Of a DNA stretch of 64,000 nt, positions 35,586 through 44,775 are shown piece by piece (the stretch's first letter is position 1; each line of letters starts with the position of its first letter). This DNA is from Candidatus Thorarchaeota archaeon (GTDB lineage Archaea > Asgardarchaeota > Thorarchaeia > Thorarchaeales > Thorarchaeaceae), in the NCBI GenBank assembly GCA_019057475.1, contig DXJO01000007.1, positions 32,001-96,000 on the forward strand, given 5' to 3'. The translations under genes and the position numbers were made by a program. Below the pieces are notes generated by a model. That model was not told the origin of the DNA. It worked only from the letters and a program-made list of their open reading frames with translations, and did no database searches.

Positions 35586-36578
35586 TTGAAGGAGAAGGTG
35601 TTTGTAACAAGAGAGATCCCGTCTGAGGGATTGGATATCATCAGAAGCAATTTTGAAACCACAGTCTGGCAGCCAGAAGTGCCCCCCACACAAAATGAGA
35701 TAGTGGAGAAGGCAAAAGACTGCGCAGGGCTCGTGACTCTGCTCACCGATCCGATAGATTCCGTAGTCCTTCAATCATTGCCCGATCTGAAGGTGATTGC
35801 GCAATACGCCGTCGGGTTTGATAATATCGATGTTGAATTTGCAACATCTCGAGGAATTGTTGTTACCAACACGCCCGGAGTCCTCACAGAAACAACAGCG
35901 GACCTTACTTGGGCGCTCATAATGGCATCAGCAAGGGGGATACCCCAGGCAGACCGCTATGTCAAGGAAGGAAAATGGAAGGTGGGATGGGGACCTATGA
36001 TGCTGCTAGGCAATGATGTCTATGGCGCAACGCTCGGTGTGATTGGAATGGGCAGGATTGGCAGCGCCGTTGCGCACAGAGCCAAGGGGTTCTCGATGAA
36101 AATCCTGTATGTTGACGTCTTTGAAAATGAAACAACAAGAAGTGTTGAGAGAGAGTTTGGAGCATCAAGAACTGATTTGGAAACGCTTCTGAGAGAAGCC
36201 GACATTGTTACAATCCATGTCCCCCTAAATCCTGACACAAGGGAAATGATAGGCGAGAAAGAGCTAAGCATGATGAAACCGGGCGCAGTGCTCGTTAACA
36301 CGTCGAGAGGGGCAGTCATTAATGAAGCTGCACTTGCAGATGCTCTTCGATCCGGACATCTCCGCGGCGCTGGATTGGACGTATTCAACGAGGAACCACT
36401 TCAAGCGGACAGTCCGCTCCTCGAACTCCGAAATGTTATACTGACTCCACATATCGCCAGTGCCAGCTTCGCTACGAGAGCTAGAATGGCAACCATGTGC
36501 GCAGAGAACCTGACTGCAGCCCTCGGGAGAGAGAGACCGCCAAACATTGTGAACCCAGAGGTGTTGAATGTTGATTGA
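35586..36578 (+). CDS. gyaR: Glyoxylate reductase / D-2-hydroxyacid dehydrogenase
   Basis: AVGFDNID, TNTPGVLT, GMGRIG, NTSRG, LDVF..EP, PHIAS. Confidence 0.9.
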   Translation: MKEKVFVTREIPSEGLDIIRSNFETTVWQPEVPPTQNEIVEKAKDCAGLVTLLTDPIDSVVLQSLPDLKVIAQYAVGFDNIDVEFATSRGIVVTNTPGVLTETTADLTWALIMASARGIPQADRYVKEGKWKVGWGPMMLLGNDVYGATLGVIGMGRIGSAVAHRAKGFSMKILYVDVFENETTRSVEREFGASRTDLETLLREADIVTIHVPLNPDTREMIGEKELSMMKPGAVLVNTSRGAVINEAALADALRSGHLRGAGLDVFNEEPLQADSPLLELRNVILTPHIASASFATRARMATMCAENLTAALGRERPPNIVNPEVLNVD

Positions 36579-36853
36579 TGACTGTAGCAGCATGTTAGAA
36601 TCAAGAATCTCGATTCGTAAGTTTAGGAAAGCCACAATCCCCGATAATGACATCAACGAGATTATCGAGATTGGTACCAAAGCTCCCTCGGCGGGCAACT
36701 GTCAGCCTTGGAGAATTGTTGTTGTGAAGGATGCAGCTACCCGCGAAAAGTTGGCTGAGGCGGCGTGGGGTCAGGGCTTCGTAGCGAAGGCGCCGGTCAT
36801 ATTGGCAGTCTGTGCGGTGCCCGCCGAATCAAAGGAGAGGTATAGCGAAAGAG
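36568..36853 (+). pseudogene. Nitroreductase, 5' part (disrupted)
   Basis: RISIRKF, APSAGNCQPW. Homology stops at RYSER, where TnpB sequence begins. Confidence 0.85.
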
Positions 36854-36878
36854 TCGCAGTGAGAAAGAAATTAGAAAA

Positions 36879-37748
36879 ATGAAGGCGGAGGTCCACGATC
36901 TCAGGGGCAGCCGTCGGTGTGCTCCTCCAAGACTTCTAGTTAAGGGACAGAGGGTCACGCTCCAAGTCCCATTCTTACCTCCTAATGAGGAAATGCTCAA
37001 CGATGTCATTGGTGAGCAGACTTATGATGCACTCGCAGGGGCTGACAGAGGAATCAGAGTTCCAATGGCTCTCTCAGTGCTCAACGAAGGTCAGTATGAA
37101 GACAGGCTAGTGTCATGCAACCATCTTATTGACAAGAGAGAGCGACTTAGAAAGCAAGCATATGCGCTCAATTCACAGATTGATAGGAAGAGAAACAACT
37201 GGGAGAAGAAACGGAAGGGATCGTTGCCCACAGTGGTTCTAAGGAAGCAGCGTCACCTTGATGCACTGTGGAGAAAAGTTCGTCGTCTCGACCGTGAGGT
37301 AGCCCGGCAGGTTGCTTCTGAAACTGTCTGGTGGTGTGAACAGCATAATGTCAAGACCCTGTTCTTCGAGGACTTGAGGAGTTATCAAGCTCCCGGAGGA
37401 CGGGGCGACCTATCATGGGCGCTGAATACAAACCTGTGGGGAAGGATATTCGATACAGTGAGGTATATGCGTGAAGCCCTAGGCCATAGATATGGTGGCC
37501 TCTGGAGCGTCAATCCATACCATACAAGCAAGAGGTGCCATGTGTGCGGTAAGGTGGGAATCAGAGTAGAGGGTAAGTCCTCAACCACTCAGAGAATGGG
37601 AGGAGAGTACTTCTATTGCTCCCACTGTCAGACCCACATGCATGCAGACCTGAACGCTGCGCGAAACATAATTCATGTTCAATCAAGGTCCAGTGCCGCT
37701 CCTGGACGGACAAATGTGGCATGTCCATGTTTGTCCAATTTACAATGA
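36879..37748 (+). CDS. tnpB: TnpB (RNA-guided nuclease family), N-terminally truncated
   Basis: RuvC-I GADRG, RuvC-II FFEDL, VNPYHTSKRCHVCG...CSHC Zn finger, RuvC-III HADLNAARNI. The frame stays open upstream (SRSEKEIRK) to the junction. Confidence 0.9.
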   Translation: MKAEVHDLRGSRRCAPPRLLVKGQRVTLQVPFLPPNEEMLNDVIGEQTYDALAGADRGIRVPMALSVLNEGQYEDRLVSCNHLIDKRERLRKQAYALNSQIDRKRNNWEKKRKGSLPTVVLRKQRHLDALWRKVRRLDREVARQVASETVWWCEQHNVKTLFFEDLRSYQAPGGRGDLSWALNTNLWGRIFDTVRYMREALGHRYGGLWSVNPYHTSKRCHVCGKVGIRVEGKSSTTQRMGGEYFYCSHCQTHMHADLNAARNIIHVQSRSSAAPGRTNVACPCLSNLQ

Positions 37749-37750
37749 AC
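37688..37750 (+). ncRNA. Putative omegaRNA 3' scaffold / right-end hairpins
   Basis: GTCCAG/CTGGAC (37688-37707) and GGACAAATGTGG/CCATGTTTGTCC (37708-37736). Confidence 0.6.
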
Positions 37751-37751
37751 G

Positions 37752-37915
37752 GTAGGAGCGTTTGATGAAGAAACAGTCACCAGGTCCTCAACGTGCCTGC
37801 GGAAATGAGACCAGTTGCGTCAATTCCAATCGGAATCCCTGACAGCCCAGTTCCAAAGAAGCGAAAGCGACGCCCGCTATCGGAAATCGTGGCGAGAGAG
37901 TGCTTCGCCAAGTAG
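37752..37915 (+). pseudogene. Nitroreductase, 3' part (frameshifted)
   Basis: VGAFDEETVT, then a frameshift, then VLNVPAEMRPVASIPIGIP...RRPLSEIV. Confidence 0.8.
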
Positions 37916-44279: not shown

Positions 44280-44538
44280 AGCGAATCCTCCTAGGAGAGC
44301 TGATTATAACTCCAGAACATAGGTTAAATCATTTCTTCCCGTGAACTAACCATGGCTCCATCAAGGATTTGTTGTTCAAACCACCAAAAGGAGGCAAAAT
44401 ACTGATGCGGTCCTACTCCCTCCAAAGATCAGCCTTCAGGGTTTCGTGATCCTCAACTATGAGGTCCAAACTCTTGATGAGCCTGCTTACCTCGTCGATC
44501 GAGAGCAAGAATGCCCCCTTGATGTCACGGTCCTCACC

Positions 44539-44633
44539 GTTCATTTTTTCTTGGACAAACTTAGACATCAAGCTGTCCGTCCAGGGACGGCACTGGACTC
44601 TACTCTCAGATTGATTATGTTGCACTTAAGGTC
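44539..44633 (-). mobile_element. Stand-alone remnant of the tnpB element right end (second omegaRNA-like copy)
   Basis: Minus strand GTCCAGTGCCGTCCCTGGACGGACAGCTTGATGTCTAAGTTTGTCCAAGAAAAAATGAAC|GGT aligns with 37688-37753. Translates NIINLRVESSAVPGRT vs TnpB NIIHVQSRSSAAPGRT. Confidence 0.8.
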
Positions 44634-44775
44634 GTATGAAAACTGCCAAAACAGCATCATCCAAACTTGTCAGAAGGCCTTCATTTGTCTGTCCAACTTG
44701 TTCCAGGTTCGTTGCAGCCGCAAGACAATCCTTATTTTGAGAAGGAAAACCCTCTGCACGGACGGAACCACCACA

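Follow-up and report, generated by a model that had tools for sequence, protein, structure and literature searches.

A probable chimeric deletion scar of IS607-type TnpB elements in a Thorarchaeota genome and the pseudoknotted omegaRNA scaffold of its family

The closest described systems to the family reported here are the IS607 elements with a serine tnpA and a tnpB, e.g. CboIStron (10.1101/2023.11.20.567912), IS607/IS1535 (PMC6188088) and ISFba1 (PMC11061315). According to the work that set out the defining features of IS607 (PMC6188088; 10.1101/2023.11.20.567912), these comprise a GG crossover core, a preference for (G)GG targets, short direct repeats close to each end, a target duplication that is usually absent, a scaffold ending in GG with a pseudoknot, and a TnpA built of a MerR-HTH and a resolvase part, all of which the present family has in common with them. 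It differs from the listed IS607 systems in the size of its TnpB (about 710 aa versus 387 aa in ISFba1; PMC11061315), in a compact scaffold of about 65-105 nt, for which a search of Rfam gave no relevant match, and in the 5' coding region of its tnpB, which holds a second scaffold copy. Gene-less relatives have been described as PATE-like elements and stand-alone omegaRNAs (PMC10055086; PMC10691335). The mini-elements (minis) of the present family are likewise gene-less and keep both ends and the omegaRNA; the cited PATEs are IS200/IS605 (Y1) derivatives, whereas the minis are IS607-type and mostly have a TATA box and a 5' hairpin.

The window analysed is a stretch of 64,000 nt of Candidatus Thorarchaeota archaeon (GCA_019057475.1, contig DXJO01000007.1, positions 32,001-96,000). 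It contains an orphan right end, which by its sequence belongs to the known kind formed by PATE-like and stand-alone omegaRNAs (PMC10055086; PMC10691335). Unlike PATEs, it is a chimera of two elements and not a transposed unit.

The orphan scaffold and copy 1

A genome-wide search aligned the orphan (44537-44601, minus strand) with the right end of a second copy in the window, copy 1 (37688-37761), at 80% identity over 75 nt (E 9e-10), and the orphan scored 77.2 bits with a covariance model made from 44 family copies from which it had been left out. This agrees with the initial annotation, which described a diverged minus-strand homologue of the copy-1 right end and proposed that it is the right-end/omegaRNA scaffold of an Asgard (here Thorarchaeota) TnpB family. 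The hairpin-1 stem is the same in both copies, the base of hairpin 2 is retained, both upper stems pair and AATGAAC-GG-T terminates both, again as described. About 20 tnpB codons were said to be left; a tnpB remnant is indeed present, with about 18 tnpB-like codons in register with the tnpB ends of the family, ten of them within the scaffold. The first eight belong to the old element, as they also occur in sister genomes with the old right end, and the rest overlap the scaffold.

Several details had to be revised. The hairpin-1 loop, reported as changed, differs at merely two of its eight nucleotides and is the most conserved part of the scaffold, because it pairs with the 3' tail. The upper stem of hairpin 2 had been taken for a replacement specific to the orphan. 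It belongs instead to the right end of a different tnpB subfamily (one mismatch in 46 nt to L031/L032), and on this comparison the differing stem is a subfamily trait that did not arise in the orphan. Instead of two copies the genome holds 23, and the feature does not stop at the limits 44537-44633 but reaches 44730, where its decayed left end lies. On its own, the 97-nt orphan stretch folds no better than shuffles (z -0.57); the structural evidence for its scaffold is the family covariation, not its own folding energy.

The features are listed in Table 1. The left-end HMM gave 7.3 bits at the decayed left end and 9.0 bits in G004, weak scores that are not significant genome-wide. The old left boundary was set independently by the empty sites of the old element in two more distant genera, G023 (L035) and G015 (L028), where the flanks meet at GG. 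A first guess for the left end, the GG at 44719-44718, was dropped since HMM and empty sites put it at 44730. The interior of the old element has a TATA-like remnant (44630-44623) and a predicted fold of -1.0 kcal/mol (z +1.9). From the left end to hairpin 1, the identity to three genomes of the same genus (G001, G004 and G005) is 81-89%. Loop base 44586 of the orphan disrupts one pseudoknot pair and is one of two private substitutions. By analogy to IS607 ends (PMC6188088), the repeats in the 3' arm of hairpin 2 are likely TnpA sites.

Table 1. Positions of the orphan, its flanks, copy 1 and the leader scaffold copies (positions are those of the window unless a locus is named)
Feature	Position	Strand	Remarks
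Decayed left end of the old mini-element	44690..44730	-	Core dinucleotide 44730-44729 is GA, from GG
Two subterminal TTGGACA-type repeats of the old left end	44706-44700 (degenerate), 44696-44690	-	
Interior of the old element, decayed	44622..44689	-	No TATA box at the family position, no 5' hairpin
Last ~18 tnpB-like codons	44568..44621	-	N-I-I...R-T-A-stop; in register with tnpB 3' ends
Hairpin 1	44579..44598	-	6-bp stem, 8-nt loop
Hairpin 2	44553..44578	-	3' arm is an inverted pair of subterminal repeats matching the left-end repeats
3' tail ending GAAC-GG	44537..44552	-	Pseudoknot partner of the hairpin-1 loop and GG crossover core
Flank/nominal guide	44517..44536	-	Starts TGAGGACC; from the middle of the host gene
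Remnant of the 96-aa gene	44413..44538	-	3' codons 56-96; conserved in Thorarchaeota, no Pfam match
Copy 1, 5'-truncated tnpB	36844..37748	+	Last ~300 codons of a ~720-aa protein
Copy-1 right end/scaffold	37688..37752	+	In nitroreductase Trp-Val codons, TG-GG-T site; 83.5 bits
Second scaffold copy in the first ~30 tnpB codons	L001:757-860, L002:6700-6790 and 30 further tnpB loci		

The host gene behind the orphan encodes 96 aa. Here it has lost its promoter region together with the first 55 codons, and no further copy of it was found in this assembly. Other IS607-type elements have landed in this gene in G004 and G005. Compared over the window remnant and the loci L018, L020, L028, L034 and L035, three genomes of this genus show hits by different IS607-type elements at different GG sites.

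The tnpB of copy 1 is 91% identical to the full gene in L045 and is joined by a microhomology of about 7-10 nt to the 5' part of a nitroreductase gene. The empty site is found in G005 (L047) as an intact nitroreductase gene with TG-GG-T. In the window, the insertion of copy 1 and a deletion of 89 nt destroyed this gene (36568-37915). Copy 1 is a parallel to the orphan, as its left end, the 5' part of its tnpB and these 89 nt were lost at the short microhomology.

An IS607-type TnpB family in Thorarchaeota

Gene-less derivatives of the TnpB family, which the initial annotation had envisaged, are plentiful, as 17 of the scaffold copies in the genome are gene-less minis that are complete and 187-189 nt long. 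Besides the truncated window copy there are three full-length tnpB genes (712, 766 and 719 codons), one of them on C42 (L001:751-2886). The covariance model matches 15 of the 23 sampled genomes of this Thorarchaeota family and none of the 117 other Asgard genomes searched; judged by these genomes, the TnpB family is found only within one Thorarchaeota family. The enlarged alignment of covariance-model matches holds about 300 sequences. A strict pattern scan of 86 genomes yielded nine matches and was too narrow, so the covariance model was used instead, and a metagenome scan yielded one locus only. In a literature search of incomplete coverage, no paper on this family or on TnpB self-repression was found.

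A protein search returned 267 homologues, the best 120 of which are mostly about 700-720 aa long. RuvC residues D486, E595 and D688 and four zinc-finger cysteines are invariant among 45 aligned proteins, and the predicted TnpB fold matches Cas12f/TnpB, with 10-15% identity to solved TnpB/Cas12f structures. Based on the invariant RuvC D/E/D and zinc finger, these nucleases of about 710 aa are presumed to be catalytically intact.

GG is found at 73 of 76 left ends and 66 of 76 right ends, preceded by G at position -1 in 66 of 76 and followed by a pyrimidine in 75 of 76, so the target motif of the family reads D-G-GG-Y. Empty sites of family elements join at the GG, confirming it as the core. At the left, TTGGACA occurs twice, some 20-40 nt into the element; at the right end it is inverted, and terminal inverted repeats are absent. 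There is no regular target-site duplication, with 73 of 76 elements sharing at most 3 nt between the start of the left end and the right flank; a systematic duplication was borderline (3 nt or more in nine elements, where 5.1 were expected) and is not claimed. An element on contig C53 has the family left end followed by a TnpA with MerR/HTH_17 and Resolvase domains, which covers 95 of 145 profile positions and looks truncated, and no match to Y1 TnpA (PF01797) was obtained in the 96%-complete genome. From its GG core, its subterminal repeats and a serine TnpA with an N-terminal HTH, the family is assigned to the IS607 type. It falls outside IS200/IS605 (Y1) and PATEs proper, as a Y1 transposase is lacking and the ends are GG cores with direct repeats.

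The element on C53 is L002 (G000:C53:670-9290), an IS607-type element of 8.6 kb with, in order, the left end, the truncated-looking serine tnpA, a divergent ORF of 1827 codons, a 766-aa tnpB and the right end. The 1827-codon ORF has no Pfam match, and a related large ORF also lies upstream of the tnpB on C54. At the ends of L002, in L059 (G000:C45) and in the old element in L018, the first 7-11 nt after the left GG repeat the right flank. Such 7-11-nt flank repeats, unusual for IS607, are possibly the footprint of break repair during homing; a flank repeat of at least 7 nt is seen in 1 of 76 minis. G000 also has a second IS607-type mini family of about 30 loci, about 275 nt long with related end repeats (e.g. 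C40:82916-83194), the right end of which is common to tnpB genes of about 410-430 codons on C18, C19 and C31. At G000:C19:31999-35434, a serine-recombinase gene is followed by a TnpB-like ORF of about 670 codons from a different family.

Structure and uses of the scaffold

In 44 sequences the hairpin-1 loop pairs with the final six bases (GAACGG) to form a pseudoknot. Both sides change in 11 of 18 pairs, which 0 of 500 shuffles reach; the sequences are related, and this shuffle result is strong support and not a p-value. Overall, 93.7% of cells are paired versus 29-53% in slid controls. As in TnpB omegaRNAs, the scaffold extends over the 3' end of tnpB and ends where the element ends, with a variable flank behind it. 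The comparative evidence thus identifies it as an omegaRNA with two hairpins and a loop-to-3'-end pseudoknot, the predicted partner of the TnpB of about 710 aa.

The guide had been read as starting with GGT, including the GG that is both IS607 core and pseudoknot partner. Since this GG covaries with the loop and ends the scaffold, the guide starts after it, and GG is likewise scaffold in CboTnpB (10.1101/2023.11.20.567912). The base after GG, nearly always U or C, could pair with a conserved loop G, which would shift the guide start one base further. By analogy to tested IS607 systems, empty donor sites would be cleaved under the guidance of this scaffold, behind a G-rich motif.

A TATA box lies 56-72 nt before hairpin 1 in 52 of 75 minis, and most minis have an extra 5' hairpin with compensatory changes. 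Because both are mostly kept, the minis look like self-contained guide cassettes. In the minis of L106-L165, the 5' hairpin contains an RBS-like GAGG and a TGACAC motif that resembles the tnpB start (ATG ACA C), which suggests that minis originated from the tnpB leader and that their ribosome site is sequestered. An initial interpretation of the 5' hairpin as a simple operator for protein binding gave way to the leader-guide reading. For one mini (G000:C40:76333-76521), an empty paralogous site with GGG and a 19/20 guide match is present at C40:402; the TATA box and loop of this mini are mutated, as if self-targeting were selected against, in this single case.

All three full tnpB genes of the genome begin with a hairpin-1 look-alike. 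Such a look-alike with at least 4 bp and 7/8 loop matches is found in 30 of 36 loci versus 2.5% of random 190-nt windows. A hexamer further downstream pairs with its loop; compensatory changes are seen, and the pairing is complete in 25 of 32 loci. The next 14 nt match the upstream region of the gene itself with a mean of 12.0, compared to 8.6 for other loci or shuffles, and the match is at least 11 in 28 of 32 loci. The leader guide has 12-14 nt and its target lies in the promoter region of the gene itself, directly before the TATA box and behind a TTG-N motif that is unlike the D-G-GG of the insertion sites. We infer that this guide would lead to self-repression of tnpB. Guide-based autorepression is known from the tracr-L of Cas9, a short guide of which matches the promoter of the nuclease itself. 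CreR RNAs (10.1101/2023.03.10.532045) resemble the tnpB leader in that a short guide matches the nuclease's own promoter. Unlike in Cas autorepression, the leader guide sits inside the coding sequence of a transposon tnpB; it is a feature of the family and not of the orphan. On balance, we lean slightly towards a scaffold used in three ways, as right-end guide, in TATA-driven trans cassettes (17 here) and as a leader guide for self-repression, with the orphan still a scar.

Origin of the orphan and its meaning

In G001, G004 and G005, the match to the window extends into hairpin 1 and covers its first half, after which the sequences diverge. Their right end is a different one and is decayed; behind it come 303-305 nt of host DNA, in which the first 55 codons of the 96-aa gene lie, and the match resumes only from the orphan GG onward, where the orphan right end adjoins codon 56. 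Orphan and G004 are identical at 137 of 154 positions before the loop and at 31 of 50 after it, while after the loop 48 of 50 positions are identical to the right ends of L031-type tnpB elements in G005. In these alignments there are two junctions, and the halves differ in ancestry. The MITE-like derivative of the initial annotation is therefore abandoned, since the orphan is a two-element deletion chimera and not a mobilised unit with its own insertion site. Its ends are asymmetric and duplication is not regular, as opposed to a strict MITE, and they come from different elements with sites about 300 nt apart, as opposed to a stand-alone omegaRNA of single origin.

Most probably, the orphan is an inert chimeric deletion scar of IS607-type elements, the formation of which destroyed a small host gene. 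As the empty sites and the orthologues show, an element shortened to about 200 nt by internal deletion first inserted at a GG lying between the S8 protease promoter and the 96-aa gene, in an ancestor from which several species in the genus descend, and then decayed. In the present lineage, a younger member of the L031/L021 subfamily would later have entered codon 56 of that gene, at a GG-T some 300 nt downstream and with the same orientation as the old element. The two elements would finally have recombined through their hairpin-1 copies, which share 12 identical nt, with the crossover placed in the 5' arm or loop of hairpin 1; this would have deleted the old right end together with the body of the new element and about 304 nt of host DNA. 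We infer this order of events and the recombination step from the two junctions. The outcome would be an intact-looking scaffold with a new flank, a broken left core, no good promoter and no target. The old element at the orphan site is decayed in all three sister genomes, and the locus is not maintained, because the old right ends score 40-48 bits there versus 77 for the orphan.

Against a scar, an intermediate with both elements was not found, both hairpin stems still pair, just two substitutions separate the right end from active copies, and a TATA-like remnant lies about 31 nt before hairpin 1, near the spacing of a mini subtype (L043, L111). If transcribed, the orphan RNA would fold. The intact stems and the remnant would fit an orphan that is expressed from the TATA-like remnant and acts in trans with a full-length TnpB, cutting intact alleles of the 96-aa gene on sister chromosomes or in DNA that enters the cell, which would favour the allele with the deletion. 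Three full-length TnpBs with the RuvC D/E/D invariant across the family are at hand, the intact allele of G004 has G-GG before a 19/20 guide match, and stand-alone omegaRNAs act in trans in other systems (PMC10691335). However, no TATA box is present at -72 to -56, only the degenerate remnant at about -31 is seen, a 5' hairpin is missing, one pseudoknot pair is broken and the chimeric junction occurs in one genome only. The own genome yielded no target flanked by GGG in which more than 10 seed bases match, and there were 0 exact matches of the guide in viral contigs. The trans-acting guide RNA of the initial annotation is thus very unlikely, and the orphan is probably not a working guide. A defence role was rejected on the 0 viral matches and the host-gene origin of the guide, and a self-target in the genome was rejected as well, the best off-site matches having three mismatches and no G-rich motif.

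The same chimera might also have been reached by gene conversion of the old right end from an active element, followed by a TnpA-mediated adjacent deletion from the GG to the GG-T 300 nt downstream. The exact junction at the GG core and the many donor copies in the genus speak for this route, but it requires two rare events, and an L031-type donor was not found elsewhere in the assembly, the nearest own copy having five mismatches in 46 nt; we consider it unlikely. As the genome is probably a metagenome assembly, like those of its relatives, and many contigs end in such repeats, the assembler could have merged two repeat copies. The sequence shared at the crossover is, however, about 12 nt, below usual k-mer sizes, and the far junction lies precisely at the GG core in a gene predicted by synteny, which makes an artefact extremely improbable. 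A deletion scar thus remains the preferred explanation.

Simple deletion of TnpB elements can leave convincing-looking 'stand-alone guide RNAs', and therefore orthologues and empty sites should be checked before a function is proposed. For the Asgard IS607 family, the ends, the target motif D-G-GG-Y, the compact pseudoknotted scaffold and the nucleases of about 710 aa are now defined, which suffices for direct tests of cleavage, trans-loading from minis and self-repression. Such a well-defined family is more useful than the orphan copy.
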